Positions 3,244 through 19,265 of a stretch of 64,000 nt of DNA are shown one piece after another. The notes under the pieces were generated by a model. That model had not been told where the DNA came from. It did no database searches and saw only the letters and a program-made list of their open reading frames with translations. The stretch is from an uncultured bacterium (lineage in GTDB: Bacteria; Patescibacteriota; Saccharimonadia; UBA4664). Positions within the stretch are counted from its first letter, which is position 1. Every line of letters begins with the position of its first letter. The stretch lies in contig CAVRET010000002.1 of NCBI GenBank assembly GCA_963720265.1, forward strand, positions 878,069-942,068, read 5' to 3'. Made by a program: the position numbers and the translations under genes.

Positions 3244-4656
3244 TTAATACGCGGCTTCAGCTGGATAGATGCTCTCATACCATAGTTGTAGGTCTTCCAT
3301 GAGGTGGCGGGCCTTGGGCTGCCCCTCAGTCCATATCCGTTCAACTTCAAGATTGAATTCTTCTGTATCGTTTAAGATACGCTTGGAGCGGTAAGTCTCC
3401 CAGATCTCGCGCTCTTGTGTCGATAAGGTATCTGGATAATTTCGAGCCTTATAGCGTATGAATAATTCTGGCAAGCGGGGGTCCGTAAAGTTTGGCGCTA
3501 GACTCACCAGCTGTTCATGGGAAGCCGCCCTGACGGTTGTGGCAGAATTGTCGCTGATAAAGCCCCCATATAGATCGGCGTCCACGTCGTTTGGCGAGAT
3601 GAATTCATGGCCGTCATAGTCGTAAGCCGCGCTGATTCTTGCGCCAAAATCGCTGCTCCTCAGTAGCTGCCGGTACTGTTCAATCTGATCGATGTCGAGA
3701 CTCAACCGCTCACTGATCATGGAGTCCATAACCGAAATTGGTGCCACAGCAGGGCATTTATTTAGAGCCAGCTCCTTTACAGGTACGCGGGCTTGGCCGT
3801 TTGCATCTAATTCTTCGCGTTTTGCGAAAATATTCTTGTTCAGTTGTTCAGTTGTCATATTGAGAAATGGTGACGGATCAATGCGCAGATCAAACACTAT
3901 ATAGCTGTCTTTGCGTTGCCCCGTCGAAATAATTTCAGCAACACTAGTAAACAAGTGCTGCTTACCATACATACGCGTGGTGTAGACGAACGGAACCGGC
4001 GATGACGGTTTAATAACTTGCGCGACTTTAGCTTTGGTGCGCAGCTGGAGCAGGTAGTCGAACAATCTGGGCTGCTTTTCCATCATCAGCTTTGCAAAGG
4101 CAATCAAGGCATTTACGTCACCCAATGCTGAGTGAGCTTCGTCGTGCTGGATGTCATTGGCCCTTGCTAGTGCCTCGAGCGTGAAGATAGCTCTACCATC
4201 TTCATCGACTGGCCAATTGATGCCATCAGGGCGTAGTGCACAAGTCATTCTGGCTACATCCAGCAGATCCCAGCGCGATCTTGCATCTTTCCATGCCCAT
4301 TCGTAAGCGTCGTAGAAGCTACGGTAAAGCAAGAAACGGATGAAATTGTCATCAAAGCGAATATTGTTGAACCCAACCATTATTGTTCCCGGCGTTAAGA
4401 CATCATTCATCAATAGCCGGACGAGGTCAACTTCGCTGATGCCGTCAGCTAATGTCTGCTGTGGAGTAATCGAGGTCGTAAGAATAGCCTGCGGAGCCGG
4501 CAGAACATCATCTGCTAATTTGACCAGGACGCTGGTTGGCTGCCCAATGGGCTGTAAATCCAAAGTTGCGCGCTGACCGGCAAATTGCATTATTCGGTGC
4601 TTGCGTGGATCAAGCCCCGATGTTTCGAGGTCATAAAAGTAAAAAGTCTCACTCAT
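3244..4656 (-). CDS. sbcB: exodeoxyribonuclease I (DEDDh 3'-5' ssDNA exonuclease)
   Basis: The ORF-track protein contains FYDLETSGLDP (DEDD Exo I motif), HSALGDV (H-x4-D Exo III motif) and is about 470 aa, as ExoI is. The likely true start is the internal Met MSETFYFYDLE at 4656, which has GGAAG upstream; the track start at 4695 is an upstream alternative. Confidence 0.75.
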   Translation of the reverse strand: MSETFYFYDLETSGLDPRKHRIMQFAGQRATLDLQPIGQPTSVLVKLADDVLPAPQAILTTSITPQQTLADGISEVDLVRLLMNDVLTPGTIMVGFNNIRFDDNFIRFLLYRSFYDAYEWAWKDARSRWDLLDVARMTCALRPDGINWPVDEDGRAIFTLEALARANDIQHDEAHSALGDVNALIAFAKLMMEKQPRLFDYLLQLRTKAKVAQVIKPSSPVPFVYTTRMYGKQHLFTSVAEIISTGQRKDSYIVFDLRIDPSPFLNMTTEQLNKNIFAKREELDANGQARVPVKELALNKCPAVAPISVMDSMISERLSLDIDQIEQYRQLLRSSDFGARISAAYDYDGHEFISPNDVDADLYGGFISDNSATTVRAASHEQLVSLAPNFTDPRLPELFIRYKARNYPDTLSTQEREIWETYRSKRILNDTEEFNLEVERIWTEGQPKARHLMEDLQLWYESIYPAEAAY

Positions 4657-4804
4657 GAGACTTCCATTATATTCCATGCGCGAGATTCGCCCCAAGCGCC
4701 GTACCCTTTGGTTGGCTTACACCCTCAAAGCGGGCGCTTCGACAAATTTGGGTAATTGAGTTCAAACGAACGAGCGGGGCCTATTTGGAGCCCCGCTCTC
4801 GCGT

Positions 4805-5056
4805 TTAGTTGGTTAAGCGGGTTACCCGTATGTTCAGGGGTGGTGCCTGAAGTGCGTCATTTAACCAAACTACTACACGCTCATCTTCACCTTTTACCTG
4901 CCAGAGACAGATATCTTCTACGTCTTTGCCCTCTGGACCTAGGTATGCCCGGCCATCTCTCCAATTAGATATCATTGCCAATCCATCGGGGGTCTTTATG
5001 ATCCACTCTGCGTCTGATTTATCCTGGTCTCCGTTGGTCGTAGGAGGACCGAACAC
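4805..5056 (-). CDS. hypothetical protein (83 aa)
   Basis: ORF track only. Composition is protein-like, but it overlaps a plus-strand ORF and I recognised no motif. Confidence 0.25.
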   Translation of the reverse strand: MFGPPTTNGDQDKSDAEWIIKTPDGLAMISNWRDGRAYLGPEGKDVEDICLWQVKGEDERVVVWLNDALQAPPLNIRVTRLTN

Positions 5057-5592
5057 AGCAACTAGGTAGTCATAGCTGACAGCGAAGGCGGCACGATATT
5101 TCGTGAAGTAGGCTCGTTCAACCGTGAGCTCAAATACAATGATCCACGATATTCTACCTTGGCGGTTTATTTTATAGGCGGGCTGCGGCTTTATTTTTTG
5201 AAACAGGACTTTATCCCTTCTTCTTATTGATATGGCACCAGAGGTGATACCAGAGATCTAATCGTGATGAAAGCTTGAGGGGGATGGCGTCGAGAAAACA
5301 TTAAAAAAGAACAGGCACTGTGCTCGTTCTATAATCTGATATGTCTATTTAATTGGTCCCCGCGTTCTGTGATCCCGAAAATGCTACAGGTCTACTATCT
5401 CGTTGCTGTCTTTTGGACCTCGCGGGCGCGGAGTACGGTATGGCTGCGGTCCGCTGCCAATTGCGCTCGAAGGTGACTCGACCGCCACGGCAACGCCTAC
5501 ATCTATTAACTCTTGCGCACGATCGGTATCTCTAACATACCTACGATCGCCCGGATTAAATTGCTTATACCCTTGGGCAAACTCAATATACT

Positions 5593-5901
5593 TCACGGTT
5601 TTTCGCTTTTCTGTAGTTCCTGAACAGCCTCTTCGAGCCATGCCATAGCAGTATTGTCGTCTAGAACAAGCTCGCGCTGATGATCCCGCAAATCTGCAAT
5701 ATGAGTCTGTAACATTAGCTTTACAGCCTCAGTTAGCTCATTTGATTCATAATTGTATCGGCCAACCAACTCCAACTCTTCGAGGTCATCGCGATCGTAC
5801 CGGATGTCGGGTCGACCTCCGCCGGGTACGCCATTTTTGTGCACCCAATATCTGACTGAGATGGATTTCGTTGCTTGATCTGGAAATATCCCAAAATCCA
5901 T
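5593..5901 (-). CDS. hypothetical protein (102 aa)
   Basis: ORF track. The acidic sequence is protein-like, the RBS is weak, and it sits in a region of low coding density (4.7-6.5 kb). Confidence 0.3.
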   Translation of the reverse strand: MDFGIFPDQATKSISVRYWVHKNGVPGGGRPDIRYDRDDLEELELVGRYNYESNELTEAVKLMLQTHIADLRDHQRELVLDDNTAMAWLEEAVQELQKSEKP

Positions 5902-6240
5902 TGAGATCGTTTCACCGTCAAGTAATACTTGCTCGTACGTGTACTCCTCCTTGTCCGGGATAGGAGTTATATCTTACCACCATTTGAAAGTTGCTGCTCA
6001 TGCTTGAATGTGACTATACGCCAAACGCCAAAACGGGCTTTATTAGAGCCCGTTTTGGTCTGGATAGTCTTTGAGCTGGACAAGTGCCTGCACGTACTCA
6101 AAGCGTGGATTTCCACCTCACACACATATGACTATCTAAGTTGGTTGTAACATTAGCCCAATACATATTCAAGATGGTTATGTATAACACGTGGCAAAGC
6201 TCGCGTTAAAATAGGTCACAGGTGATCTATAGGAGGAAAA

Positions 6241-6402
6241 ATGGCCGACGACAAAGTAACTTTATACTGTAAGAGTGACACGTGTAAGAGTGGTGGCGAG
6301 TTTACAATTACAAAAGAGGAACAAGATTACTATGAGCAACGGATCGGTCAGCTTCCCCGCTATTGTCCAACTTGTTCGAAAGAGCGAAAGAAGGCTGCCT
6401 AA
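6241..6402 (+). CDS. small zinc-ribbon protein (53 aa, below the 60-aa ORF-track cutoff)
   Basis: Strong RBS TAGGAGGAAAA directly before the ATG at 6241. Translation is MADDKVTLYCKSDTCKSGGEFTITKEEQDYYEQRIGQLPRYCPTCSKERKKAA, with two Cys pairs (C10/C15 and C42/C45). A GCTGCCT-aag-AGGCAGC hairpin overlaps the stop. Confidence 0.4.
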   Translation: MADDKVTLYCKSDTCKSGGEFTITKEEQDYYEQRIGQLPRYCPTCSKERKKAA

Positions 6403-6471
6403 GAGGCAGCGACTTAGTCTGACGAGAATAGCCATTTTTGAGTCCGATGTAAAAAATTGGACCTAGTAGCA

Positions 6472-7149
6472 TTATCGTTTGGTTTTGTGTCGCCACCAGA
6501 ATGTAGAAGGAGAATAAGGTACTGTAAGCTGCGGCGATTTGTTGACGATTGCCACTAGACCAGTACTTCGCGCCCCTAGCCCGTCGATCTGGGCGAGCGT
6601 ATCGGCAACATTGTCATAATTGACTTGCAGGAGACGCTTTTCCATTCGTAGAACGTTGATGCCCATTCGGGCATACTCTAATTGATCGCGTTTCTCCAGT
6701 AGCAGGCCCAGGTCATCTTCGTCAGGATGACCTTCTTCCAGCTCACTGACGCCGTCTGTAAGCTTTGTGAGGGCGTCACTAAGTTGGTCCTGCAGCAGCT
6801 CTTGGTATTCTTTGCTGCGGTACTGCTCGCTAGCTAGCATGAATCCGTCAATTTCGGCAACTTTATCCTTGATCTCATCCAGAGTTAGTACGCCAGATTC
6901 TGCCGTGGCCTCTCCGAACTCAATGTTCGTCCCGCGTGGAGTTTCATCCAAGCGCTCTGAAAGATCGTATGCCTGTGCCCACAAACTGATAAGAAGTACG
7001 AGGTTTGGAGGAGCCTCTTCTTCCAGATCTTTGCACCAATACATCATCCTTGCAGCTTCGACTTCAGCCATAGTGGTCGCGATTGAAGCTGTAAGCCACT
7101 GTTGTTTTAAGGGAGCATTGAAGTTATCGGCTCGCTCGTTTTGAGGCAT
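6472..7149 (-). CDS. hypothetical acidic, coiled-coil-like protein (225 aa); last gene of the helicase operon
   Basis: ORF track. Its start overlaps the upstream gene's stop (TAATG at 7149), indicating translational coupling. Confidence 0.5.
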   Translation of the reverse strand: MPQNERADNFNAPLKQQWLTASIATTMAEVEAARMMYWCKDLEEEAPPNLVLLISLWAQAYDLSERLDETPRGTNIEFGEATAESGVLTLDEIKDKVAEIDGFMLASEQYRSKEYQELLQDQLSDALTKLTDGVSELEEGHPDEDDLGLLLEKRDQLEYARMGINVLRMEKRLLQVNYDNVADTLAQIDGLGARSTGLVAIVNKSPQLTVPYSPSTFWWRHKTKR

Positions 7150-7601
7150 TAGCTAGTTTCTCGCTGCAAAACTTCAGGGAATGGCTTATGCGGGTCATAG
7201 TCGTCAGGTAACTGGATGGGCTCATCATCGCTGCTAAGGTAGTATTTGTTTGCCAGTTCGTAAAACTGAGGCAATAATGCCCAGATCATTTCGAGACTAG
7301 CGACGAATCTTTTCCGGAATTCTGCGATATTCACTTGTTTTTTGGCCAAGTAATCTAGGGCGTTGGCTATGTTTTGATAACGATCTCCTGAGTGTATTTC
7401 ATTATTTTTAGCTCCGTAGGTTGCGTCCCAACCATCTGAGTAAAACTCACTTACCAAATCAGCCGCACCAAAGTTGCGACTGCGCTGTACTGTTTCCTCC
7501 AACATGGCAGCCATTGCTTCGAGGCTGCCCAAATATTCCTCTACTACCCCCGGTGTATAGACATCTTTATCTGGTTTCGAAGCTCGCGTCTCTTCACTCA
7601 T
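7149..7601 (-). CDS. hypothetical protein (150 aa)
   Basis: ORF track. Only 8 nt separate it from the upstream gene's stop. No domain recognised. Confidence 0.5.
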   Translation of the reverse strand: MSEETRASKPDKDVYTPGVVEEYLGSLEAMAAMLEETVQRSRNFGAADLVSEFYSDGWDATYGAKNNEIHSGDRYQNIANALDYLAKKQVNIAEFRKRFVASLEMIWALLPQFYELANKYYLSSDDEPIQLPDDYDPHKPFPEVLQRETS

Positions 7602-7609
7602 AGTACTTA

Positions 7610-8551
7610 TTATTGTATAACATTAGTCACCCAACTTGCACTGGCCATCTTGCCCCCGACGTAAGCCATCCCGCGATCGGCTTCATAGACGGTTCGGATG
7701 CTCGGAGGGCTGAACTTATCGTTCAAAATAACTACAAGTTGGCTGCTTATCTCATATTTGATGAGTCTTCCGGAAGTCGAGTCGCGGAACTCCGCTACTT
7801 GGCTTGGATCGAGAGAGCTGGCGATAGGTTTGGCTAGCTGGATCATTTGCTTAAGCTTTTCCGCATCGCTTCCCTGAATATGCAGATCGTCAGCATGATT
7901 TATGATATGGTGGCCGCTGCTTTCCAGATGGCGCCAGGTGTTATCGGGTTGTTGGAAGTACCAGCTGGGATCTGCGCGAATTTCCAGGGGAGTAAGTCCG
8001 GCTACAGCACTCACGGACTGGAGGTGCTTAGCTCCTAAGGCTGGGTCTGACGACCCAAATCTAGGTTTGGGGTCAGATGCCGCAATCGCATTAGTCCAGC
8101 CATTAAAATATTTGGTGGCACGCGCAACGCTTCTAGGCGAAGGGTGCCCTGACCCATTAGCTTGAGGTTTATCAAGCAAATATGCTCTTGGATGTTGCGC
8201 CCTGCCGGTATAATACTTGCCAATCATGTCGGTGGCTTTTGTTTTTATATTGGTTCTCGCAGCATCTGATTTATTTTTCTCACATGGCGCACACAGGGCT
8301 GGCTCGATCCATTCCCCAATTTTTTTGTGATGCATGATTATGCTATTGCGCGAAAATTGTTGAGACCGCCCGCAGTTTCGACAGATGACTTGCACGCTGG
8401 ATTGGCCTTTGCGCCAGGCTATACAGGCCTTGCATGCAAGCGGCATGCTCAGGCCCCTCATCTCGTAGTACCCGACCTCTCCCTCATCAAGTTCAATGTT
8501 CCCATCCCCTTCGCAGTACGCCTGGCGGCAGGTGTCGCTGTAAGCGGCCAT
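7610..8551 (-). CDS. double zinc-ribbon protein (313 aa); C-terminal half unknown, possible degenerate HNH-like His cluster
   Basis: N-terminal Cys pairs are C-x4-C, CKAC, CRNC and CAPC. The ATG lies 1 nt after the helicase stop (cTAGcATG). A later GHHIINHADDLH His/Asn cluster is weak HNH-like evidence only. Confidence 0.55.
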   Translation of the reverse strand: MAAYSDTCRQAYCEGDGNIELDEGEVGYYEMRGLSMPLACKACIAWRKGQSSVQVICRNCGRSQQFSRNSIIMHHKKIGEWIEPALCAPCEKNKSDAARTNIKTKATDMIGKYYTGRAQHPRAYLLDKPQANGSGHPSPRSVARATKYFNGWTNAIAASDPKPRFGSSDPALGAKHLQSVSAVAGLTPLEIRADPSWYFQQPDNTWRHLESSGHHIINHADDLHIQGSDAEKLKQMIQLAKPIASSLDPSQVAEFRDSTSGRLIKYEISSQLVVILNDKFSPPSIRTVYEADRGMAYVGGKMASASWVTNVIQ

Positions 8552-8552
8552 G

Positions 8553-11500
8553 CTAGTTCAGCTCTTCGGGCTTATGCAAATGAATCAGCGACCATTTCTC
8601 GCCTTCGTCCGCGTCGTCACCAAGATAGGGTACGGCGATTGCGCTCAGAATCATTCCGTCGGCCAATTTGAGGGGCGTACCACCCTGCTTTAGATGCCCT
8701 CTACGACCGCCTTTTTCTTCTGTATCCTCACCCCAGTTGTAAAGCTCGTTATTGGTATCATTTTGAGCTTTTGAGATTCTGATTAAGATACGAGTTGTAT
8801 CTGCTGCAAGCTCCCGACAGAATTGGGCCTCCTCATGATCCGCTAGAGTCGGCAGGAAATACGTTAATAGGGATAGTTCTTCGTCTAGTTCGCACGTTTC
8901 GTGAATTAGTTGGTAATCGGCCCGGTGTTGCTTATTGATATATTTAATGGTTGCTTCGATGGCATTAAGAGATGATCGAATATTTGGCCCAAATAGACCC
9001 ATCGAAGCAGCCTCCTGGTCTAGTGCTTTCGACTGCGCATAGTATTCGAGTTCAGAGAGGTTGCCAAACAGATTGTCGCTAAACTCATTGGCGAAATAGC
9101 ACATGATCCTATAGAGCGACACCAACTCACTTTCCCTAGAGAGTGTGATTGCGTGCTTATGCGCTAGCAACACCGCTTGACTTTCGCCCGTCTCTGTCTC
9201 CACACATGTGTACCCTTCCTGGCCCAGAGAGGTCTTTAGAAGTTCCACCTGTTGCTCGTCGACGAAAAATGGTCGCTCGGTAGCGAGTTCCAGGCTGCCT
9301 CCTACACAAAAATCAGAATGTCGCTCTTGTACGTCCTTTAATCCTGTGCGAAATAAGGCCGCTAGAACAAGAAAGAACCCAAACTTATGGTCGTTGCGCT
9401 CTAATAGGGCTTCCTCGAGCCCGGCTGCGTAGCCAACGTCGGTCATTCCAATCCATGGTTGGCACATCTGCCCGCGCTCCGACAAACCGGTTCTATCTGT
9501 TAGCCCCATTTCTGTGAGGCGTCGCCGCTGTGCGAGGAATTCTTCCACGCGCGCTCTTGAGAGGTGCACCCGCGACGGAAGATTAAGGCGTGAGAGTTCT
9601 AGCTCGGGGTCTTCCCACTTTTGCTCAAAGCTGTAAAGTGCTAATGGCTCAAGTGAAGCGGTCTTGAAGGGCAGCTTGATCGGCTCGTTCTTCATGCCTT
9701 CGCTGTTGAGCTCTGCGTCCGAATAAGTAGAGAAGAATGCATCTTGCTCATTCGTGATATAGCCAATGCCTGATCTCACCCTACCTACCCGCCCTACCCG
9801 TTGATAGAGAGAGTTTACGTTGAGCGGTGCTAATCTTGGGAGCACCTCATCAGCAACCACTATATTCTCGAAAGCGCTACCCATCGTAACTACAAAGTCT
9901 AAGCTGGGAAAGGTGACGCCCATCTCAACCACATTTGTAGAAATAATGACGTATTTTGATTTTTCACTCTCAATTTGCTCCATTCTGTGTTCGAAGTCTG
10001 CTTTCAAGGTAGGGTCGCGGTTTATAGCACTTGCAAGCTTCACTACTCGGACAACTATGGCCTCTTTGTTGAGTGAACCTTCAATGAGGCCAGCAATACG
10101 ATTAATATCGCTCGTCTCCGAGGCGTAGCTGTTGGCAATAATTAGCATCCCTTGCGCTGTGTCGTTGCTACCAAGTACTGCTTTCTTCACCTCTTCGCTG
10201 TAGGGGTATGAGGTATCGGGGAAATACTTAGAGTTAGGGTCCGGTTGGACCAACGTGCCTTTCACCAAGTCGACGATGCAATCCATCATTGGCTGCTTCA
10301 TATTGTGAAGCCAGATCTTGTGGCTCTGCTTATTGGCCAGTATAAGATTTTGTACTGCTAGCATGTCCTTGATGCCACGCGTTTCGACAGTTGCCGACAT
10401 GTAATCTACTGGTATATCTCGATTCCTGCATAGAGCGATGGCCAACTCTACTTCAGAATTCTGACCGATTGTTATGTGAGCTTCATCGATGATAATTCTA
10501 TCAGCACCCGGCACTAGGTTGTTGTTCTTGGCCATTTGCGCAAACACGCCAGTAGTAATGAATTTTATGGGAGCGTCTGGATTACGAGACTTTGCGGATG
10601 TTGCGCATCCGAATATTTCCGCTGATCTCGAAGGGTTAAGTTGAGAGCTTTTTTGTGTCTTCAAAAAATCTTCGAATGAATCGTTCATATGATCCATTTC
10701 ATTGGTGGCGATAGGAATTGTGGGCTCTACGACGAATACTCGAGGTAAGTCGGTGCATTCTGAACCATCATCACGACCTTGGTAGTACTTCTCGCACATG
10801 CGAAGGAAGACGTGCACAGGTGCTGCTACAGTCTTGCCCAAGCCAGTTGCGGCCACAAGGAAAAAAGGCTCTTCTTTAATCTGGGACAGGTAATTTGCGA
10901 TGCCTAACGGCCGTGGGTAAGTCAGAATATGTCCGAGGAACTCCACTATCAGTGAGACATCATACTTGGTAGACCCGCCCCGATAGCCTCGAACAAGCAG
11001 ACTAATTTTTGGGATATTGTAAGAAATGGCGGATGTGCGCTCGTTGGAACTTGAAACAGGGGCTTTTACATGCTGGGGTACTGCACCATCTTGCACAGTC
11101 GTGCCGCTTGACTCCTGGCTCGATGGAAGTTTTTTGACGTTGGCCTGAGGCTTTGAAGCTGGTGCCGCACCGGCTATGTCAGGTTTAATGTGCGCCTCCG
11201 AAATAGATAGTCGGATTTGCTTACCAGCCGCTTCGCTAGCCATTTGCTCCAATCTAGACCGACTTAGTTCATAGGCGAAATGTTTCGGGCCAGAAGCGGT
11301 TGCTGTAATGAATGGCAGATTAATTACATACTTCTCAGCATCGGCTAACAGGACCCTTGCCTCTTCTGCTGCATCTCGCATTCGCTGCTGAGCGGCTTTA
11401 TCAAGCGATAAGTCTATGCCTTGTTCTCTTTTAAATTCACCTATCAAGTAGCTTGCAAGTACAAGGCGATAGTCACTCTCGGCGAGCCGAATGCTGTGGT

Positions 11501-11813
11501 CAATTATGGCTACACGGTCGGAACGACTGTCCGAGTTTTGTGCGGGGTGGTTGGCTGCTTTAATATCGTCGGCAACGGCGATACGCCTTATGCCTATAGC
11601 CTGCCATTTCCATTTATGATTCTGCGGGGCGCGAGAATCAAGCTCAGGGTGCTCCTTGAGCCTAAAAATGACAACCTCGCCAGCTTCGAGTGGGGATTTG
11701 ATATATACGAGAGATTCGGCATCAAACCATATTTCGCAGTCAATTTCTCCACCAATTTTAATGAAGCCCGGTGAGTTTTGAGTACTTCTTTGAAGAACCT
11801 GTCCTGCGTACAC
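8553..11813 (-). CDS. large DEAH-type SF2 RNA/DNA helicase (1086 aa), HrpA/HrpB- or NS3-like core with about 320-aa N-terminal and about 400-aa C-terminal extensions
   Basis: Motif I VAATGLGKT, motif II IIIDEAHI, motif III SAT and motif VI QRVGRVGR are all present. The start is GTG preceded by GGGGAGG. It is followed by three translationally coupled genes. Confidence 0.7.
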   Translation of the reverse strand: MYAGQVLQRSTQNSPGFIKIGGEIDCEIWFDAESLVYIKSPLEAGEVVIFRLKEHPELDSRAPQNHKWKWQAIGIRRIAVADDIKAANHPAQNSDSRSDRVAIIDHSIRLAESDYRLVLASYLIGEFKREQGIDLSLDKAAQQRMRDAAEEARVLLADAEKYVINLPFITATASGPKHFAYELSRSRLEQMASEAAGKQIRLSISEAHIKPDIAGAAPASKPQANVKKLPSSQESSGTTVQDGAVPQHVKAPVSSSNERTSAISYNIPKISLLVRGYRGGSTKYDVSLIVEFLGHILTYPRPLGIANYLSQIKEEPFFLVAATGLGKTVAAPVHVFLRMCEKYYQGRDDGSECTDLPRVFVVEPTIPIATNEMDHMNDSFEDFLKTQKSSQLNPSRSAEIFGCATSAKSRNPDAPIKFITTGVFAQMAKNNNLVPGADRIIIDEAHITIGQNSEVELAIALCRNRDIPVDYMSATVETRGIKDMLAVQNLILANKQSHKIWLHNMKQPMMDCIVDLVKGTLVQPDPNSKYFPDTSYPYSEEVKKAVLGSNDTAQGMLIIANSYASETSDINRIAGLIEGSLNKEAIVVRVVKLASAINRDPTLKADFEHRMEQIESEKSKYVIISTNVVEMGVTFPSLDFVVTMGSAFENIVVADEVLPRLAPLNVNSLYQRVGRVGRVRSGIGYITNEQDAFFSTYSDAELNSEGMKNEPIKLPFKTASLEPLALYSFEQKWEDPELELSRLNLPSRVHLSRARVEEFLAQRRRLTEMGLTDRTGLSERGQMCQPWIGMTDVGYAAGLEEALLERNDHKFGFFLVLAALFRTGLKDVQERHSDFCVGGSLELATERPFFVDEQQVELLKTSLGQEGYTCVETETGESQAVLLAHKHAITLSRESELVSLYRIMCYFANEFSDNLFGNLSELEYYAQSKALDQEAASMGLFGPNIRSSLNAIEATIKYINKQHRADYQLIHETCELDEELSLLTYFLPTLADHEEAQFCRELAADTTRILIRISKAQNDTNNELYNWGEDTEEKGGRRGHLKQGGTPLKLADGMILSAIAVPYLGDDADEGEKWSLIHLHKPEELN

Positions 11814-11962
11814 CTTTAACAGCCTCCCCTGGATTTACGCCGTGTCTGAAGACGGGAATTACTTGATAGCGATTACCATTATTGTTACCAGCTTAGTGGA
11901 CATGTCGGAACGCCTCAATAAGCTTTAGAGATCTAGTATTGCGGCACACGTTGGTCTGTCAT

Positions 11963-12187
11963 TTACAGACCTTTTAGTAGTTCGCTCGGATCTACCTTGA
12001 GCGCTTTCGCGATCTTCAGGATCTTATCAACGTTCAAATTTCGCTCGCCGCGCTCGAGTTGCCCCATGTAGCTGGCAGATATTCCAATTTTCCAGGCGAG
12101 TTCTTCTTGCGACATTTCGCGCTGTTCGCGGTAGCGCCGGATCTTCTGGCCAATCTTTTTGTGGCCGCGTGAGAGTTCTTCATTCAT
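11963..12187 (-). CDS. XRE-family helix-turn-helix transcriptional regulator (74 aa)
   Basis: Sequence ...REMSQEELAWKIGISASYMGQLERGERNLNVDKILKIAKALKV is a classic XRE/Cro-C1 HTH. It sits 149 nt upstream of the helicase on the same strand. Confidence 0.7.
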   Translation of the reverse strand: MNEELSRGHKKIGQKIRRYREQREMSQEELAWKIGISASYMGQLERGERNLNVDKILKIAKALKVDPSELLKGL

Positions 12188-12314
12188 TACTCCTTATGAA
12201 TAGATGGAACAACGCATATAGACCAGTTACTATGTGCGCTATTGCCTCTTATGGTTGTATCCGTTATAAATGCACATAGTTACTAAACTTTAGCTGTATA
12301 GAGGAGGCCGACCC
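12188..12314. promoter_or_regulatory. divergent promoter/operator region with inverted repeat AGTTACTATGTGC ... GCACATAGTTACT
   Basis: Two copies of an approximately 13-nt element in inverted orientation are spaced about 37 bp apart, between the XRE gene and the divergent 12315 gene. This is a plausible XRE operator. Confidence 0.35.
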
Positions 12315-13049
12315 ATGCCGGATATTCGTCCCCCACATCAACAAAGCCCGCCAGTGGCCAGCCCGCCGCCATCAAGCTACGGAGATGTGACGAGGTCATG
12401 GTGGAAGTCACTTACTCGCCTGCAACGCAACCGCCTTATTGGCCTCGGGGTCCTGGTGGTACTGATTGGTGGTGGCCTTGTAGCCGGCCACTATAATCGC
12501 AGTTCCGGGACCACAAGCAACGCACCCATAGTAGCGGCCAACGGCACCACCAGTATTGGTAAGGGTACAGTATTTGCCTACAACGGTATTACCTACACGG
12601 TCCAATTCGCTGGTGTAGATTTAGAAGGTCAAAGCACTCAATCGGCAACTGGCATGCAAATTGAATACTTCTTTACCATCAAGTCTCAACCTGCCAATCT
12701 GAATCGTACGCCCGATACGTTTTACATTGATGCCGCGATACCCAAAGCAGAAGCACCGGATTGTGGCGTCAGCCCGACACCAATCCCGGCAGATTCTCTT
12801 GTGCAGGAAATTAACTACTTCGTGCCCGTCCCGCAGAAAGCTGGCTGGTGTGAGTGGTTCCAAGGCCTGAATGACCAAAGCAACTCGACCGCGTCTGCGG
12901 ATGACCCGAACGTACCGGATTACTCGCCAACGCCACAGGAAATTCAGTTAAACGAACTTAATGCACCCCTCAATCGCACGAAGGTAGTGCTTGTTATCCG
13001 GCCCAGTAGTGGCGGTAGCCAGTGGATCGTGCCGTATCCCAGCAATTAA
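12315..13049 (+). CDS. membrane-anchored/secreted hypothetical protein (244 aa), Pro-rich N-terminus with one TM segment
   Basis: RBS GGAGG precedes the ATG. The hydrophobic stretch LIGLGVLVVLIGGGLVAG is a TM segment. Confidence 0.55.
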   Translation: MPDIRPPHQQSPPVASPPPSSYGDVTRSWWKSLTRLQRNRLIGLGVLVVLIGGGLVAGHYNRSSGTTSNAPIVAANGTTSIGKGTVFAYNGITYTVQFAGVDLEGQSTQSATGMQIEYFFTIKSQPANLNRTPDTFYIDAAIPKAEAPDCGVSPTPIPADSLVQEINYFVPVPQKAGWCEWFQGLNDQSNSTASADDPNVPDYSPTPQEIQLNELNAPLNRTKVVLVIRPSSGGSQWIVPYPSN

Positions 13050-14500
13050 AAGCTGTGCGGTCGATAGTCAGTGTAGGCTACGAGCTCACTGCTAAAGGCG
13101 CGAGGAACGGCGGGCGGGATTGTGGCTGCCAGAGTCTCATTGGCGTCCCTAACAGCCTCCGTCACCATCCCCCGATGCGCCTCAAATAGAGCATTCCGCT
13201 GGTGCACCGCACGGCTCTGCTGTTGAACCTGATCGCGCGCGCGACGGTAATGCGCTCTGTCCCCGAAATATTCGACGACCAGCGGAACGTCGTGGATCAA
13301 AATGGCTACGATAACTATCGCCATGAGTACGACAAATGGGTACTGCTGGATTAATACCGATATCACGCCAACTACCAGGAAGAACACCGCCATCTGCAGT
13401 CGCCGTCCCAGCATCGTGGCAAGCACCGGTTCTCGGGGAGGGGTCGGCAGGGCAACGGGATTTTTAAGACATGCACTGGCTTCGTCCCGCATATTCGACA
13501 AGCTCATCTGCATACGACGGCGGTAGATGGCCAGGTTGAGTACATTCGTTCGCGGCCCTGGCGCTCGCTTGGGCGGCGTCGGCTTCTCGCGCGTCATCGG
13601 CACGCCGGCTTGGTGGCACGCGTCGTAGAGATTGTCCCACGAAGTATTGAGTGCCCGAGCCTGGGTCACGAGCGTTCGACAGGACTCCTGGGTGGCTTCG
13701 TCAATTCGATCTAATTCCATAGACTCGGCGGCGATTACCAGCTCCGCGTCGATGAGAAAGGCTTTAGCCAGCTCCCGCTCAGCCACCTCTCGCTGCTGCG
13801 GTCCGTTGGCGTACTTCATGAGTGGCAACGCAACGTCGGGACAGTCGCGGGATATGGCGCGCCGCAGTACTTCCCAACCGGCGCGTTCGTTGCCGATTTG
13901 CGCGTAGCACCGGGCGGATAAGATGGCGGCCTCAGCGCTCAAGGCTGGGTTAGCGTCAGCAAACAAAGCGCTATCGGCAAACGCCGCCGCTGCTACATCG
14001 GGCTGATCGTTACTGGCATACAGAAAGCCCAGGGCGTGCCAGGCCACAAAGTCCGTCGGATTGAGGGCGACAGCATGTTTGAGGTGCTGGACAGCCAGTA
14101 GCAACTTATCTTTGGACGCAAGATACAGGCCCTTTTCGCGCCTGGCGGCGGCCCTGGCATCATCCCAGTTTGAGAGGATCTGCACGATTTGATCAAGCTG
14201 GGCTGAGATCTGTAGGAGCTGGCGAAGCGTCAGCACGAAGCCGACGTGTGTGATCGCAACTAAATTGCCCAGGTTGAGGGCAATGTGCCTACGGTCGGTT
14301 GCGGCTTCGGTCTCAAGTTGGGTAATCGCTCTTAGTCCAGCATCCACCCTATCGTCCATGCGGGCGATGTTACGACCGACATATTTGGTCGTGCGCCGGA
14401 GCTCAGTGAGATCCACGTGCTGCCGCGCGGCAATAGACCGCATAGTTTTTTCGTAACTGGCGGTTTGACGCTGAATCGTTTGTTCGACGGCACTAGACAT
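13046..14500 (-). CDS. TPR-like repeat protein with C-terminal transmembrane segments (484 aa)
   Basis: Ala/Leu-rich helical repeats (AWHALGFLYASNDQPDVAAAAF...) and the C-terminal hydrophobic run MAVFFLVVGVISVLIQQYPFVVLMAIVIVAILI. Confidence 0.5.
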   Translation of the reverse strand: MSSAVEQTIQRQTASYEKTMRSIAARQHVDLTELRRTTKYVGRNIARMDDRVDAGLRAITQLETEAATDRRHIALNLGNLVAITHVGFVLTLRQLLQISAQLDQIVQILSNWDDARAAARREKGLYLASKDKLLLAVQHLKHAVALNPTDFVAWHALGFLYASNDQPDVAAAAFADSALFADANPALSAEAAILSARCYAQIGNERAGWEVLRRAISRDCPDVALPLMKYANGPQQREVAERELAKAFLIDAELVIAAESMELDRIDEATQESCRTLVTQARALNTSWDNLYDACHQAGVPMTREKPTPPKRAPGPRTNVLNLAIYRRRMQMSLSNMRDEASACLKNPVALPTPPREPVLATMLGRRLQMAVFFLVVGVISVLIQQYPFVVLMAIVIVAILIHDVPLVVEYFGDRAHYRRARDQVQQQSRAVHQRNALFEAHRGMVTEAVRDANETLAATIPPAVPRAFSSELVAYTDYRPHSF

Positions 14501-14661
14501 ACTGTCTTGTTTATTTCCTCACAAACTTGGTAATCGGATAGAATTACACAAACTTTCTGTCGTGTCAATGTTTTTTGCTTTTCCAGGGCCATTTTTCAGG
14601 TTTGAAGCCTGTCATGCTTGACTGATGTAATTTTACAGCGCTATGCTCTTAGCCATCCGCT

Positions 14662-14853
14662 GTGAATTTACAGCATTTAACCGAAAGGGGGTCAGGTATG
14701 ACGAAAAAAATCAAAGTGAAGGTGGTACGGCGCGAGCCGATCGACGCCGAAAAGCTCGCCTCAGCGCTGGTAGAAATCGCCATTAGGGTGGTTAAGAAGC
14801 CGAGCGAAACGACGAGCAAGGACTCGGCTAACGGGACAACTGACCATGAATGA
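14662..14853 (+). CDS. small hypothetical protein (63 aa; probable Met start MTKKIKVKV at 14698 after GGGGG RBS)
   Basis: ORF track. First of three overlapping, translationally coupled genes that lead into the TraD-like gene. Confidence 0.35.
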   Translation: MNLQHLTERGSGMTKKIKVKVVRREPIDAEKLASALVEIAIRVVKKPSETTSKDSANGTTDHE

Positions 14854-15004
14854 TCATATTCGGGCGAGAATTGCGCGCGGCAGGTTGCCGGAGATCAAGC
14901 AGATTGGTTCGGATCGGCCGGATGTTCCAGCGATTCTGTCGCTTAACAAGAGCCGACACCGCAAGCCACGCGACGCACGGCGAGTGAGGCGGTCCGATGT
15001 TTAA
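14846..15004 (+). CDS. small Arg-rich basic protein (52 aa), not in the ORF track
   Basis: Its ATG overlaps the previous stop (ATGAATGA) and its TAA overlaps the TraD-like ATG at 14997. Translation is MNDHIRARIARGRLPEIKQIGSDRPDVPAILSLNKSRHRKPRDARRVRRSDV. Confidence 0.25.
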   Translation: MNDHIRARIARGRLPEIKQIGSDRPDVPAILSLNKSRHRKPRDARRVRRSDV

Positions 15005-17303
15005 CGCGCTTGCCGAACTACTGCTGTTAGGTGCTACCGGCGTCGTGGCCGTCCGGTGCGTGGAGCAATATCGCATCGAGATGCACCGCCTGGCCTACGA
15101 GTTATATTTTCCGCATGGGCTGAAGCCTGACGCTGTCGCTGACTACATGCGGATCGTAGCCCATATGTTGCCTCGGCCAAAATTTCGCATCCTTGCGCAC
15201 ACGTCGTTTGTGCTTGAGACCCGCGCATCTCACGAGGGCATTCGGCACGTGGTGCACCTGCCTGAAACTTATGCTGGAACGCTTCTGGCGCAATTACACG
15301 CGGTTGTTCCGGGCGTTCGAGCCGTACAACTTCACTCAGCAGGCAGAACCGTGCAACCCCTGGTAACTCGTGAGTTGCGACTGACGAACCGGCTCTACCC
15401 GCTGAATGTCGACCATGCCAATGCCGCAACCCTGGCCATGCTGGCTAGTCTGCAGCCGCTAGAGCGCGGTGAATCGGTTGTCGTCCAGATGGTTATGGCC
15501 CCGGTCACGTCTCCGAGCCTGCCCCGGCAGCGTTCGCCCAAGCCGTATCAGATCCCCCTGCCCTGGTGGTCGCGTATGTTGTTTGACGTTGTAACTTCAA
15601 ACCCGCTGACGCCGGATCAACGGGCGGCGGCCGAGCTAAAGCTAGCCGAGCCGGCCTTTAGTGGCACGCTGCGGATCGGAGCACAAGCTCGCACGCGACG
15701 CCGCAGTCGCCACCTGGTGCGGTGCCAAATCGCACCACTGCAAATTTTGAGCACCCAGCAAGCCCGGTTCGTTCGCCGCCGCGTGCCAAGCGTCGTTGCG
15801 ACGTGGGCATTTGAACGGGCGTTCCTGCCGATCGTGCTATTTCCGGTCACGCTCAATGCGGTCGAGCTGGCCAGTCTGTCAACCTGGCCGATCCTATCAC
15901 CGGTTCTCCCCGGACTTAGGATCGGAGCCAGCAGACTGGTGCCACCGCCGGTTGCTATTCCGGTTTCCGGTCACGTCTTAGGCGAAGCGAATTATCCCGG
16001 CACGACCAGACCGGTGGCGGTCAGTGTGAGCGCCAGCTTGCGACACACCTACGTCATTGGCCCGACCGGCAGCGGGAAATCTACGCTCCTCATCAACTTG
16101 GCCGTCCAGGACATGGCGGCCGGACGAGGTCTGGCGGTGTTCGATCCCAAGGGTGACCTCATTGAGGACTTACTGGCGCGCGTACCGAGACATCGGCTGG
16201 GTGACGTCGTCGTGATTGACCCGACCGACCCAACTCGCGCCGTTGGCCTCAACTTACTCGATCACAGCGCGTCAATCAGTAGCGAACTAGCGGTTGACCA
16301 GATTGTGGGGACGTTCAAGCGACTGTTTGTCGGGTTCTGGGGACCGCGCACCGACGACGTCCTGCGCTCGTGCCTCCTGACACTGGCCCACCACCCCGAT
16401 ACCACGCTGGTTGATGTGCCGCTACTGCTGCAGGATTCGAAATATCGGGATCGACTGGTCGACGCCATCGACGATCCGGTTGGACTGGCACCATTTTGGA
16501 AATGGTACAAAGCCTTAAGCGACAAAGAGCGTAGTCAAGTGGTCGGGCCGGTGCTGAACAAATTGCGGGCGTTACTGCTGCGTAAGGCCGTCCGTGACAT
16601 TGTGGGACAACCCCAGTCCACTATCCGCATGAGCGAGATTATCGCCCAGAACAAGATTCTGCTTGTGAGTTTGCCAAAAGGCCTACTGGGTGAGGATACC
16701 AGCTCGTTACTGGGCTCACTGTTGGTGATGAATTTGTACCAGGCGGCAACACAACGCGCCAGCTTGCCGGTCGAACAGCGCACCCCGTTTTTCTGCTATA
16801 TCGACGAATTTCAGGACTATCTGAACCTGCCTCAAGGAGTTGAAACGATCCTGGCCCAGGCGCGAGGGTTCGGATTTGCCCTGGTTATGGCGCATCAGCA
16901 CCTGGCTCAGTTGTCCAAAGAAGTCCGCGACGGCGTGCTGGCCAATGCCCGCACCAAGGTGGTGTTCCAGACGGCCGCCAGTGACGCTCGGACGCTGGCG
17001 GACGAATTCGAGCCTCACATTACGGCGAGCGACTTACAGAACCTCGAACCACATCAGGCGTTTGCAATGGTGGCATTGAACAACCAGCCAGCGGCGGTTA
17101 CCAGTATCGCGACCGCTCCGCCGCCACCACCGTCAAGCGATCCGCAGCGGATAAAGGCCATGTCGGCGGCCAAGTACGGAACGAGCCGCTACGACATTGA
17201 GCAATTCATGCGCTCACGCCATGTGGCCGACTATGCCACCGCCCCGGATCAGTCAACGGGGACCGACGTTGAATCTACCGAAGGGTTTACCGATGGTTTG
17301 TAG
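14997..17303 (+). CDS. TraD/TraG/VirD4-like type IV coupling protein family P-loop ATPase (FtsK/HerA superfamily), 768 aa
   Basis: Walker A VIGPTGSGKSTLLINL and Walker B FFCYIDEFQDY are present, along with a C-terminal acidic tail. A paralog lies at 40808..43432. Confidence 0.7.
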   Translation: MFNALAELLLLGATGVVAVRCVEQYRIEMHRLAYELYFPHGLKPDAVADYMRIVAHMLPRPKFRILAHTSFVLETRASHEGIRHVVHLPETYAGTLLAQLHAVVPGVRAVQLHSAGRTVQPLVTRELRLTNRLYPLNVDHANAATLAMLASLQPLERGESVVVQMVMAPVTSPSLPRQRSPKPYQIPLPWWSRMLFDVVTSNPLTPDQRAAAELKLAEPAFSGTLRIGAQARTRRRSRHLVRCQIAPLQILSTQQARFVRRRVPSVVATWAFERAFLPIVLFPVTLNAVELASLSTWPILSPVLPGLRIGASRLVPPPVAIPVSGHVLGEANYPGTTRPVAVSVSASLRHTYVIGPTGSGKSTLLINLAVQDMAAGRGLAVFDPKGDLIEDLLARVPRHRLGDVVVIDPTDPTRAVGLNLLDHSASISSELAVDQIVGTFKRLFVGFWGPRTDDVLRSCLLTLAHHPDTTLVDVPLLLQDSKYRDRLVDAIDDPVGLAPFWKWYKALSDKERSQVVGPVLNKLRALLLRKAVRDIVGQPQSTIRMSEIIAQNKILLVSLPKGLLGEDTSSLLGSLLVMNLYQAATQRASLPVEQRTPFFCYIDEFQDYLNLPQGVETILAQARGFGFALVMAHQHLAQLSKEVRDGVLANARTKVVFQTAASDARTLADEFEPHITASDLQNLEPHQAFAMVALNNQPAAVTSIATAPPPPPSSDPQRIKAMSAAKYGTSRYDIEQFMRSRHVADYATAPDQSTGTDVESTEGFTDGL

Positions 17304-18179
17304 ATGCGCTCGCATCTTCAGGCTTTGGGGCAACCTTCATCACAGATTAAGACAGGTGACTCTCTTAGTACTAAGGCATGTGCAATGACGCAGCTTCAGC
17401 GGCACAGCCGTGATGACCTGCTAACGACGGCCAAGCGCTTAACGGACCGTGACCGCGCCATTGTGGCAACGCTGGCAAGCGTGCGCCTGGCAACTGCCGA
17501 GCATATTCGACAACTCCACTTTGCGACTGGTTCACCAATTTCAACTGGCCGGGACTGCCGACGAGTCCTCAACCGCTTAATCGGGCTCGGGGTGGTGAGC
17601 GTGCTCGACCAGGGACAGCGTCGCAGTAATGGTGGCCGATGGCCTCACTACTACCGACTCGGCTCTGTCGGACAACGCTTGGTCTGGCCGGAGCGTAGGC
17701 GCTATCCCCAAATTCTGCCGATGGGCAGTCAGTTTCGCGCCCATATCCTGGCCCTGACGGATCTGTATGTGGCAATTCATGTCGCCGCTAGTTCCGGGGC
17801 GGTTGAGATCCGCAGATGCCAAACCGAACCGCGATGCTGGCGGAGAACATCGGCGCTACGATCCGGGACATTAAAGCCCGATATGTATTTACTCTTGGGT
17901 CGCCAGCGCGTAATCCAGGCTACGTTCATCGAAATGGATATGGCGACCGAGCCGCCCGTGCGGATTCGCGCCAAACTTAACCAGTATTACGACTACTGGG
18001 CCAGCGGCCGCGAACAGGAGCGCACTAAGCTATTTCCGCGGGTGCTGTTTCTGGTTCCCAACCAGACGCGTCTAACGCAAATCCAGCAAATAATTAGCGA
18101 CCAACCCAAGTACATGCAGGCCCTGTTCACGGCTGCCCTGCAAGCAGACGCCATACCAACCTTAATTGGAGGACTTTAG
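17304..18179 (+). CDS. replication-relaxation family protein (winged-helix), 291 aa
   Basis: The N-terminal wHTH LTDRDRAIVATLASVRLATAEHIRQL...RRVLNRLIGLGVV resembles the Replic_Relax family, and a paralog sits at 39958..40713 in the same position relative to a TraD-like gene. The ATG at 17304 is coupled to the TraD stop (TAGATG). An alternative start is at 17385 (MTQLQRH). Confidence 0.5.
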   Translation: MRSHLQALGQPSSQIKTGDSLSTKACAMTQLQRHSRDDLLTTAKRLTDRDRAIVATLASVRLATAEHIRQLHFATGSPISTGRDCRRVLNRLIGLGVVSVLDQGQRRSNGGRWPHYYRLGSVGQRLVWPERRRYPQILPMGSQFRAHILALTDLYVAIHVAASSGAVEIRRCQTEPRCWRRTSALRSGTLKPDMYLLLGRQRVIQATFIEMDMATEPPVRIRAKLNQYYDYWASGREQERTKLFPRVLFLVPNQTRLTQIQQIISDQPKYMQALFTAALQADAIPTLIGGL

Positions 18180-18182
18180 CCT

Positions 18183-19187
18183 ATGACCCAACTACCACGA
18201 AACGAAATCTTACTTGGTGACGCCGCAATGCGTCTGAAAGAATTGCCCGACGCCTCGATTGACTGTGTAATCACCTCCCCGCCCTATTACCGCTTGCGCG
18301 ATTATGGCGTCAACCGCCAGATCGGGGCCGAACCCGGCGTCACGGGCTGGGTTGAGGCCTTACGCGCCGTATTCCGCGAACTTGTCCGCGTCCTGAAGCC
18401 AACCGGCTCGGTGTGGCTCAACTTAGGAGATACCTATTCGGGCAAAGTCGCCGAGGGCGCACCCGCCTATTCCCTACTGCTTGGACCTGAGCGATTGCTG
18501 TTTGCCCTGGCCCAAGACGGCTGGATTGTGCGTAATAAGGTGATTTGGGACAAGACAAGAACCACGCCGCACCCGACCAAAGACCGGCTCACGCCCGCCT
18601 ATGAGGTCATTTACTACCTGGTACGCTCCCGGCCGTATCACTTTGATCTGGACGCGATTCGGGACACTCACTTACCAAAGACACTAGAGCGAGCAATCGC
18701 GGCGTTCCCAGAGCTCCAAAACGTGCCAAAGACCCAACTGCTCGGTCGTAATCCTGGCGATGTGTGGCGGTTTGCACCCAGCGTCTATGCCGGGGCGCAT
18801 TTCGCGACCTTTCCGCCAGAACTGGTCAGGCGTCCGCTGCTGGCGACGTGCCCAGAGAAGATCTGTACCGCCTGTAAGCGGCCGTGGCGGCGCATGGTTA
18901 CACCACTGTATGTCCCAACCTCGCGCTCGATTGGCGCGATCCGGCGGGCGCAAATGAACTATCCGATGCAGGATGTGATCTACATCCCGGGCGAGCTGCT
19001 ACCAGATTGTTTGTGTAATGCCCCGACCGTGCCCGGTGTGGTATTGGATCCATTCTTCGGCAGTGGCACCGTCGGCGCGGTCGCCCGCAAATTAGGTCGG
19101 GACTACATCGGCATTGAGCTCAACCCGGAGTACATCCAGCTTGCTAAGGACCGAATCAAAGCCGCTGGGGATCACGCCAATGCTTGA
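18183..19187 (+). CDS. beta-class N6-adenine/N4-cytosine DNA methyltransferase (334 aa), apparently orphan
   Basis: Motif IV CVITSPPY (D/S-PPY) is N-terminal and motif I DPFFGSGT is C-terminal, as in ParB-type/N4-N6 methyltransferases. No adjacent endonuclease gene. Confidence 0.75.
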   Translation: MTQLPRNEILLGDAAMRLKELPDASIDCVITSPPYYRLRDYGVNRQIGAEPGVTGWVEALRAVFRELVRVLKPTGSVWLNLGDTYSGKVAEGAPAYSLLLGPERLLFALAQDGWIVRNKVIWDKTRTTPHPTKDRLTPAYEVIYYLVRSRPYHFDLDAIRDTHLPKTLERAIAAFPELQNVPKTQLLGRNPGDVWRFAPSVYAGAHFATFPPELVRRPLLATCPEKICTACKRPWRRMVTPLYVPTSRSIGAIRRAQMNYPMQDVIYIPGELLPDCLCNAPTVPGVVLDPFFGSGTVGAVARKLGRDYIGIELNPEYIQLAKDRIKAAGDHANA

Positions 19188-19265
19188 TGTTTTGAGCAAT
19201 ACCTGTTGTAAACTTACAGCGATAGGTATACAATGCAAATCCAGCAATGAACTCAGGGAGATTCA

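Follow-up and report, generated by a model that had tools for sequence, protein, structure and literature searches.

We analysed a stretch of 64,000 nucleotides (nt) from an uncultured bacterium of the Saccharimonadia (contig CAVRET010000002.1 of assembly GCA_963720265.1; hereafter the window), in which five minus-strand genes run from an XRE-type regulator through a large superfamily 2 (SF2) helicase and a zinc-binding protein to two small acidic proteins (Table 1). An earlier interpretation made from the letters alone (the sequence-only reading) had placed five open reading frames (ORFs) here and had described the four genes from the helicase onwards as tightly coupled, and both the ORF list and a direct reading of the junctions agree with it. 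Specifically, a single nucleotide separates the helicase stop codon from the start of the gene for the 313-amino-acid (aa) zinc protein (TAG-c-ATG), 8 nt lie between the latter gene and that of the 150-aa protein (TAA, 8 nt, ATG), and the genes for the 150-aa and 225-aa proteins overlap as TAATG. The helicase gene itself is preceded by the Shine-Dalgarno sequence GGGGAGG. Comparison across genomes revealed that three of these genes, encoding the helicase, the zinc protein and the 225-aa acidic protein, form a conserved unit (hereafter the trio), and it is the possible function of this trio that is considered below.

Upstream of the helicase gene, the 149-nt gap to the XRE gene contains a promoter-like site as well as a hairpin that spans the stop codon of XRE, so that the regulator possibly forms a separate transcription unit. 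The XRE protein matches the PADLOC models for 'control proteins' (E-value (E) 1e-18), and the inverted repeat that had been reported from the region between the XRE gene and the divergent 244-aa gene is indeed present, making the segment 12225-12284 a candidate operator.

Table 1. Features of the window referred to in the text (positions in nt, counted from its first letter; pI, isoelectric point; T4CP, type IV coupling protein; RNase, ribonuclease)
Feature	Position	Strand	Remarks
SF2 helicase of predicted DEAH/RHA fold, 1086 aa	8553-11813	minus	Pfam DEAD and Helicase_C; GTG start
Zn-finger candidate RNase, 313 aa	7610-8551	minus	predicted treble-clef Zn modules and BECR domain
Acidic FWW(R) partner protein, 225 aa	6472-7149	minus	pI 4.5; FWW(R) at aa 217-220, nt 6490-6501
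Acidic accessory protein, 150 aa	7149-7601	minus	pI 4.5; subclade only
XRE/HTH_3 regulator, 74 aa	11963-12187	minus	HTH_3 E 2.4e-16; local addition, outside the conserved module
13-nt inverted repeat, AGTTACTATGTGC / GCACATAGTTACT	12225-12237 / 12272-12284		XRE/244-aa divergent region; 92% complementary, arms 34 nt apart
Apparently captured Hsp70/DnaK fragment (subdomain IIB), helicase aa 110-198	11220-11486	minus	Pfam HSP70 E 3.8e-15
T4CP (VirD4/TrwB-type coupling protein)	14997-17303	plus	Pfam, NCBIfam
MobC-type (Replic_Relax, PF13814) relaxase	17304-18179	plus	Pfam, NCBIfam
Orphan N6/N4 DNA methylase	18183-19187	plus	Pfam, NCBIfam
Large serine recombinase	19749-21419	plus	ORF overlaps 3' side of tRNA-Val by 44 nt
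tRNA-Val	21376-21452	minus	tRNA prediction
Stand-alone treble-clef Zn protein, 53 aa	6241-6402	plus	convergent on cassette end
Terminator-like hairpin	6394-6410		
Pro/Ser-rich protein, 244 aa	12315-13049	plus	one predicted hydrophobic helix
484-aa protein	13046-14500	minus	weak TPR matches; hydrophobic C-terminal segment
2853-aa ORF	55296-63857	minus	right end of the window

For the comparison, at least 30 loci carrying helicase relatives (labelled L001 and so on) were fetched, and their ORFs were searched with iterative hidden Markov models (HMMs) for homologues of the partner proteins. A word-index homologue search with the 313-aa and 225-aa proteins returned the query alone, and the partner homologues were recovered via local iterative HMMs on these loci together with an exhaustive search of representative sequences. 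About 90 clear relatives of the helicase (33-44% identity, mostly ~780 aa) turned up in a set of 5.8 billion clusters, and 68 representatives of the zinc protein in one of 1.84 billion. The helicase relatives belong to Actinomycetota (Kribbella, Lentzea, Amycolatopsis, Streptomyces, Nocardia) and to Patescibacteria (Saccharimonadia, Woesebacteria, Uhrbacteria, Berkelbacteria, SR1), with further ones coming from metagenomes. A homologue of the zinc protein adjoins the helicase in 27 of the 28 loci with sufficient flanking sequence, and a homologue of the 225-aa protein, which carries a C-terminal FWW(R) motif, lies directly downstream of the zinc protein in all 21 co-directional loci (20 besides the window). 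The full co-directional trio thus occurs in 21 loci, in Actinomycetota, Patescibacteria and the genome studied here, and with its genes arranged alike in over 20 independent loci, this layout is far beyond chance. Moreover, the pairwise distances of the three core proteins correlate with one another (Mantel r 0.71-0.83, p <= 5e-4; 17 loci). Whether the helicase and its partners co-occur as a conserved cassette in other genomes had been put forward as a check, and they do so across phyla, in the form of a trio composed of a DEAH/RHA-fold helicase, a zinc protein of ~270-320 aa and an acidic FWW(R) protein.

The sequence-only reading had drawn the unit more widely, as a candidate defence operon of five genes headed by XRE, which was said to resemble anti-phage systems such as Hachiman, DISARM and Druantia and in which the zinc protein was possibly HNH-like. 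The layout and the tight coupling of its genes are real, and the XRE protein does resemble the 'control proteins' of restriction-modification (R-M) and defence loci. However, none of the other loci has an XRE gene in an equivalent position, and homologues of the 150-aa protein are confined, among the loci searched, to L001 (two copies), L005 and L031 besides the window. Because the XRE gene is not conserved and the 150-aa gene is restricted to a subclade, the unit is the trio and not the five-gene operon. The gap before the helicase, with its hairpin and promoter-like site, likewise speaks against the longer unit, and the zinc protein turned out not to be HNH-like (see below). The resemblance to the three named systems was not recovered either, as the cassette proteins match no PADLOC model for HamA (DUF1837)/HamB, DrmA/DrmB (DUF1998)/DrmC or DruE. 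The five-gene operon is hence already contradicted on gene content, and we consider it very improbable.

A second architecture was found in L019, L022, L025 and L036 (Patescibacteria/SR1), where the protein combining zinc modules and candidate RNase domain is encoded convergently to the helicase. In three of these loci this protein measures 431-446 aa and has an extra N-terminus of ~140 aa, while the L025 ORF comprises 243 aa. Under translation table 11 the helicase of L025 breaks up into many ORFs, and it is therefore probable that UGA is recoded in the SR1 loci. In three actinobacterial loci, a protein of ~380 aa without Pfam match is encoded 1-2 kb past the trio (L007, 14894-15997; L023, 15263-16390; L028, 15106-16254), which may be an extra lineage-specific partner. 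All three loci also contain an Lsr2-like gene.

The helicase carries the motifs GLGKT (aa 324-328), DEAH (443-446), SAT (473-475) and QRxGRxGR (671-678), all of them invariant in an alignment of 20 homologues, so the DEAH/NS3-like motifs noted earlier stand. Its conserved core extends over aa ~262-1086 (nt 8553-11030), and the N-terminal 261 aa form a lineage-specific extension. Pfam recognises only generic DEAD and Helicase_C domains, with no match to HA2 or OB_NTP_bind in the C-terminal region, and a profile of the helicase family searched against the PDB found its best matches in DEAH/RHA and flaviviral NS3 helicases at only 30-40 bits. From the AlphaFold2 (AF2) model of the core (pLDDT mostly 80-95), Foldseek aligned 750-900 columns to Prp43, Prp2, DHX15, DHX8, DHX36, DHX29 and DHX37/Dhr1 (E 1e-20 to 1e-22, TM score normalised to the target ~0.6, sequence identity 12-16%). 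Together, motifs I, II, III and VI and the span of the Foldseek alignments, which should take in RecA1 and RecA2 and the winged-helix, helical-bundle and OB domains that follow them in this class, place the protein in the DEAH/RHA class, the model predicting the whole architecture of that class beyond the two RecA domains. As in other members of this structural class, it may be an RNA-dependent 3'->5' motor.

The earlier view that the helicase is not a housekeeping HrpA or HrpB was upheld. Against the NCBIfam equivalogs, whose cut-offs range from 546 to 1400 bits, it scored 28.6 bits for HrpB (TIGR01970, cut-off 546) and 20.5 bits for HrpA (TIGR01967, cut-off 723), and these matches span motifs V-VI only. 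Instead of being a conserved, syntenic and usually monocistronic chromosomal gene, it is patchily distributed, paired with the zinc protein and often located on mobilizable elements. The helicase is therefore a distant, separate clade of the DEAH/RHA structural class and not an orthologue of HrpA or HrpB. Its relatives differ in their N-terminal extensions: most have none, P0081 and P0083 have TPR arrays, and the 261 aa of the window's helicase, comprising a beta-rich segment and a piece of DnaK (subdomain IIB), are unique. A cold-shock or OB-like N-terminus had been suspected by eye, and is not supported by Pfam in a region where the model is of low confidence.

The 313-aa protein consists of two predicted treble-clef zinc modules (aa 1-95, nt 8267-8551), a basic linker modelled with low confidence (aa ~100-170) and a domain predicted to adopt the colicin-D-like BECR fold (aa ~195-310, nt 7610-7969). 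Seven of its cysteines (C8, C40, C43, C57, C60, C87, C90) never vary in an alignment of 46 sequences, and an eighth position, 13, is occupied by Cys or His, in line with the four Cys pairs that had been counted in the window's protein alone; the pairs would make up two zinc sites. Of the 46 homologues, 26 match PF13451 (zf_Tbcl, 'probable treble clef'; best E 4e-14); the window's protein has no match at E <= 0.1, and the orthologue in L033 has a precomputed one. The AlphaFold model (mean pLDDT 84.7, both domains above 90) was compared with known structures by Foldseek, which ranked colicin D entries first to fourth for the C-terminal domain (probability 0.98-0.99). The order of predicted elements in this domain (pre-alpha helix 212-217, alpha helix 229-245, beta strands 1-4 at 252-290) corresponds to the colicin-like BECR topology of a pre-alpha helix followed by alpha-beta1-beta2-beta3-beta4. 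In this 'Colicin-like' BECR group the active site combines a His on the pre-alpha helix with residues of strand beta-4, and the characterised members mostly cut tRNAs (bioRxiv 10.64898/2026.08.28.747851). The 313-aa protein offers candidate catalytic residues at both places, namely H215 on the predicted pre-alpha helix (kept in 45/46 homologues) and T/S287 on beta-4 (46/46), and K/R265 (41 of 46) and W307 (40/41) are conserved as well. With tandem treble-clef modules and a colicin-D-like BECR fold, the protein is not an HNH nuclease, and the suggestion of a degenerate HNH can be dropped.

The closest folds of the C-terminal domain are all secreted or toxin-antitoxin (TA)-type toxins, and the idea that the cassette serves in conflict is strengthened by one of the partners having such a toxin-type RNase fold. 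The charges of the proteins fit as well: the candidate RNase family is basic (median pI ~9.1) and both partner families are acidic (pI 4.5-5.9), and a basic nuclease with an acidic partner is the pattern of colicin D and its immunity protein ImmD.

Convergent on the end of the cassette, the window encodes a stand-alone treble-clef protein of 53 aa, which scores 24.9 bits against PF13451 (gathering cut-off 24) and is a paralogue of the first zinc module of the candidate RNase (N-terminal zinc HMM, E 7e-10). No small stand-alone counterpart was present in any other locus searched. A terminator-like hairpin lies between this gene and the converging cassette.

The family of the 225-aa protein is uniformly acidic (pI 4.5-5.9), its members ending in the invariant FWW(R) motif and, after it, a basic tail, and that of the 150-aa protein is acidic with a conserved C-terminal P-x-DYDP-x-KPFP motif. 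Both proteins had been described as having no recognisable domain, which the libraries confirm, as neither matches Pfam, NCBIfam, PHROGs, PADLOC or any sequence of the PDB. In L035, the BECR and FWW(R) domains are fused in one protein of 342 aa (8588-9616), while the zinc modules occur in a separate 655-aa protein (5934-7901) with a long uncharacterised C-terminal part, and the helicase is TPR-fused and 1539 aa long. This fusion argues for a physical association of the BECR and FWW(R) parts.

The trio of the window is carried by a mobile element. On the right-hand side of the cassette lie genes for a T4CP, a relaxase, an orphan methylase and, running into tRNA-Val, a large serine recombinase; the relaxase is a Replic_Relax protein and as such belongs to the MobC family (PMC5357655). 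Because integrase, relaxase and T4CP are present and no VirB4- or PrgI-like mating-pore gene was found within 12315-21419, we consider the element to be integrative and mobilizable, with a size of ~16 kb (~4700-21452). Its flanks look chromosomal, with the exodeoxyribonuclease I gene (sbcB, 3244-4695) on the left and two-component genes beyond the tRNA, and its left boundary lies between sbcB and position 6472. No att repeats longer than 9 nt were found between tRNA-Val and the left flank, as expected for a serine recombinase. In four further loci, T4CP and relaxase homologues are neighbours of the trio: L007 (Amycolatopsis), L014 (a metagenome-assembled genome of the Solirubrobacteraceae), L023 (Lentzea) and L030 (Streptomyces sp. 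R08). L014 and L030 additionally share the serine recombinase, and the L014 element is nearly syntenic with that of the window. Overall, T4CP and MobC relaxase genes accompany the trio in 5 of the 7 loci counted as non-Patescibacteria. Carriage on a mobile element supports the conflict idea.

Between cassette and T4CP, the element encodes the 244-aa and 484-aa proteins of Table 1, which have no homologues in related elements. At its right end, the window holds the 2853-aa ORF.

Such carriage might in turn indicate that the trio helps the mobilizable element to transfer or to become established, acting soon after entry into a new host, or else in the donor, by cleaving host RNAs, blunting defences or excluding competing elements, much as BECR effectors of phages and conjugative elements do. 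The neighbouring T4CP and relaxase genes in the window, L007, L014, L023 and L030 are what this explanation would have one expect, their orientation relative to the trio varying between loci; in L023, T4CP, relaxase, helicase, zinc protein and FWW(R) protein follow one another on a single strand. BECR effectors of phages (PBECRs) and of conflict systems are documented (bioRxiv 10.64898/2026.08.28.747851). An orphan DNA methylase is likewise encoded on the element, and enzymes of this kind are commonly taken for anti-restriction devices. However, a related coupling-protein/relaxase pair lies inside a complete type IV secretion system (T4SS) cluster of an Embleya plasmid that lacks the trio, and none of the plasmids in PLSDB holds a relative of the helicase, which leads us to read the trio as cargo or accessory rather than as part of the transfer machinery. 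Most trios, moreover, including those of Patescibacteria, Kribbella (L028) and L013, have no conjugation genes nearby. We thus think it quite unlikely that the trio serves transfer or establishment.

The reading that we prefer is that the trio is a helicase-gated RNase conflict module on mobile DNA, employed in defence or in addiction to the element, and we give it about an even chance (a probability of roughly 0.5). It rests on the conserved linkage of the genes, on the folds of their products together with the conserved residues that may be catalytic, and on the pattern of charges and the carriage on mobile elements. The rarity and patchy distribution of the family, the variable N-termini of the helicases and the HindVP R-M system beside one locus (L036) also count in its favour. 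The 313-aa protein would be the effector, in which the treble-clef modules hold RNA and the basic, flexible linker connects them to the BECR domain, with His215 of the pre-alpha helix and Thr/Ser287 of strand beta-4 as putative active site and tRNA or another structured RNA as the likely target. The DEAH/RHA helicase, as a presumed 3'->5' RNA translocase, would be the NTP-driven sensor or gate that either licenses the RNase on meeting foreign or aberrant RNA or supplies it with RNA, and its variable N-terminal additions are candidate sensor or adaptor domains mounted on an exchangeable port. The acidic FWW(R) protein may bind the RNase and restrain or couple it, a role that the acidic 150-aa protein could share in its subclade. 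The resulting RNA cleavage would arrest translation, by which phage infection would be aborted or cells losing the element would be killed. In this genome the module would be cargo of the ~16-kb integrative mobilizable element, with the XRE protein and its putative inverted-repeat operator as a lineage-specific layer of transcriptional control.

A number of observations weigh against a conflict module. The RNase assignment is made at the level of the fold, and it is from the model that we infer activity: a profile of the C-terminal domain searched against PDB sequences retrieved no colicin D or other BECR chain, no Pfam toxin family matches any of the 46 zinc-protein members, and PDB profile searches with the zinc protein, its C-terminal domain and the FWW(R) family yielded chance matches only (e.g. 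strictosidine synthase, E 0.007). Gene adjacency and the basic and acidic charges fit a toxin-immunity pair, whereas the L035 fusion and the four convergent-type loci (L019, L022, L025, L036), in which no FWW(R) gene is detectable, do not, so that a plain relation of toxin and antidote is not established. The association with the mobilizable backbone was ascertained from the side of the helicase, and its frequency is one among helicase loci and not among such elements; a metagenome scan with the T4CP alignment, run with a generic Walker-A pattern, gave one marginal locus. No helicase relatives were found in 2.9 million IMG/VR viral contigs or in the PLSDB plasmids, and the patescibacterial copies sit among housekeeping genes (RuvX/YceG/RpoBC in L033, pilins/SerRS in L031, Ddl/Ldh in L001) with no hallmarks of mobile elements. 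Finally, known defence genes are not enriched near the trio. Among 66 uncharacterised neighbours from 10 loci, one clear defence match was found, the HindVP R-M pair beside L036, plus a single match to the candidate model PDC-M05A, which was left without assignment.

Some of these observations would suit a cellular RNA-processing or quality-control complex, in which the helicase would remodel structured RNA (stalled translation complexes, tRNA or rRNA) to the benefit of an endoribonuclease of its own, perhaps in connection with stress or heat shock, and which would be a benign accessory that is sometimes mobile. The housekeeping surroundings of the patescibacterial copies and the scarcity of defence genes are in keeping with such a complex, and the fusion of RNase and FWW(R) parts in L035 looks more like a stable holoenzyme than like a toxin and its antidote. 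Links to chaperones point in the same direction. Residues 110-198 of the window's helicase are 54% identical to DnaK aa 221-309, which is subdomain IIB of the nucleotide-binding domain (E 1e-29; NCBIfam DnaK models, E 2e-21), with Chloroflexota DnaK sequences as best matches, and the fragment looks like a captured piece of a dnaK gene. Among the helicases listed in the homologue search, only that of the window has HSP70 among its precomputed Pfam domains; the fusion is a rare and clean example of a domain taken over from a core chaperone. Chaperone genes directly follow the trio in three unrelated loci, namely hrcA-grpE-dnaK-dnaJ in L002 (15076-20033), groES-groEL in L001 (15795-17743) and, in L030, a convergent gene for a J-domain protein of 362 aa that has a membrane segment at its C-terminus (14110-15198). 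However, the latter has no counterpart in other loci, and no chaperone neighbours were found in more than 15 other loci, so that the chaperone links may be coincidence. The family is moreover extremely rare and patchy, unlike a housekeeping function, its carriage on mobilizable elements in five of the seven non-Patescibacteria loci is unexpected for one, and the toxins that provide the closest folds of the candidate RNase do not suit it. We therefore regard a cellular RNA-processing complex as unlikely.

The conflict-module reading also has a more far-reaching version, in which the trio would constitute a new kind of prokaryotic immunity based on RNA surveillance: the helicase would sense the RNA of invaders and set free a colicin-D-like tRNase with zinc fingers. 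Here the N-terminal sensor port, with DnaK subdomain IIB and its GrpE-binding face as a decoy, may signal that Hsp70 is being hijacked by proteins of a phage or plasmid. We hold this elaborated version to be a long shot.

If the trio is active, it would be an RNA-directed system whose motor comes from the family that eukaryotes use for RNA sensing and remodelling, and it would provide the first function for a treble-clef domain of the PF13451 type. It would also offer a compact helicase-RNase pair for studying how small partners regulate bacterial DEAH/RHA helicases, and a module common to Actinomycetota and Patescibacteria, consistent with horizontal exchange.

With respect to known systems, no model in PADLOC v2, Pfam, NCBIfam or PHROG describes the system or its three partner proteins, and the helicase has only weak, generic PADLOC matches (SngC 6e-5, Cas3 4e-4, BrxH 1.5e-3), in accordance with the earlier statement that the gene content is unlike that of any known system. 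Literature searches for this combination of domains found nothing. In its helicase, the trio shares core architecture, motifs and the beta-hairpin before motif VI with Prp43/DHX15, Prp2, DHX36, DHX37 and HrpA/HrpB, but in contrast to these it is rare, patchy, mobile and not housekeeping, at 12-16% identity. Small partners with short conserved motifs are also known from G-patch-regulated helicases, to which the trio may be analogous.

The candidate effector is predicted to share fold and topology with the BECR tRNases of the colicin D/ImmD and CdiA-CT/CdiI pairs, including a conserved His at what may be the corresponding place and the order of a basic nuclease gene followed by that of an acidic partner. 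Unlike colicin D and CdiA-CT, however, it has no detectable sequence similarity to them and no secretion or translocation domain, and instead possesses cytoplasmic treble-clef zinc modules and an obligate linkage to a helicase. Its acidic partner likewise differs from ImmD and CdiI in being large (215-330 aa), in having the invariant FWW(R) tail and in being sometimes fused or absent. In mode of action, the proposed module might resemble PrrC and RloC, latent anticodon nucleases that are held inactive by a partner under NTPase regulation and that arrest translation upon infection. These are HEPN-type nucleases of an unrelated fold, whereas the NTPase of the trio is a separate helicase and not of the ABC type, and its tRNA substrate is a presumption.

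Modules of helicase and nuclease recur in prokaryotic immunity. Hachiman (HamA nuclease and HamB helicase) and Mokosh (RNA helicase and PLD nuclease) couple the two and are often mobile, and the trio would by analogy follow the same general logic of an SF2 or RNA helicase with a nuclease effector on DNA that is often mobile. It differs from both in lacking a PADLOC match, in having a predicted zinc-finger BECR RNase in place of DUF1837 or PLD, in the DEAH/RHA type of its helicase and in its third, FWW(R) component, and none of the catalogued systems that were checked pairs a DEAH/RHA-type RNA helicase with a BECR RNase. While a helicase and a nuclease on mobile DNA are thus a familiar design, no description appears to exist of a DEAH/RHA helicase combined with an FWW(R) protein and a treble-clef/BECR RNase.

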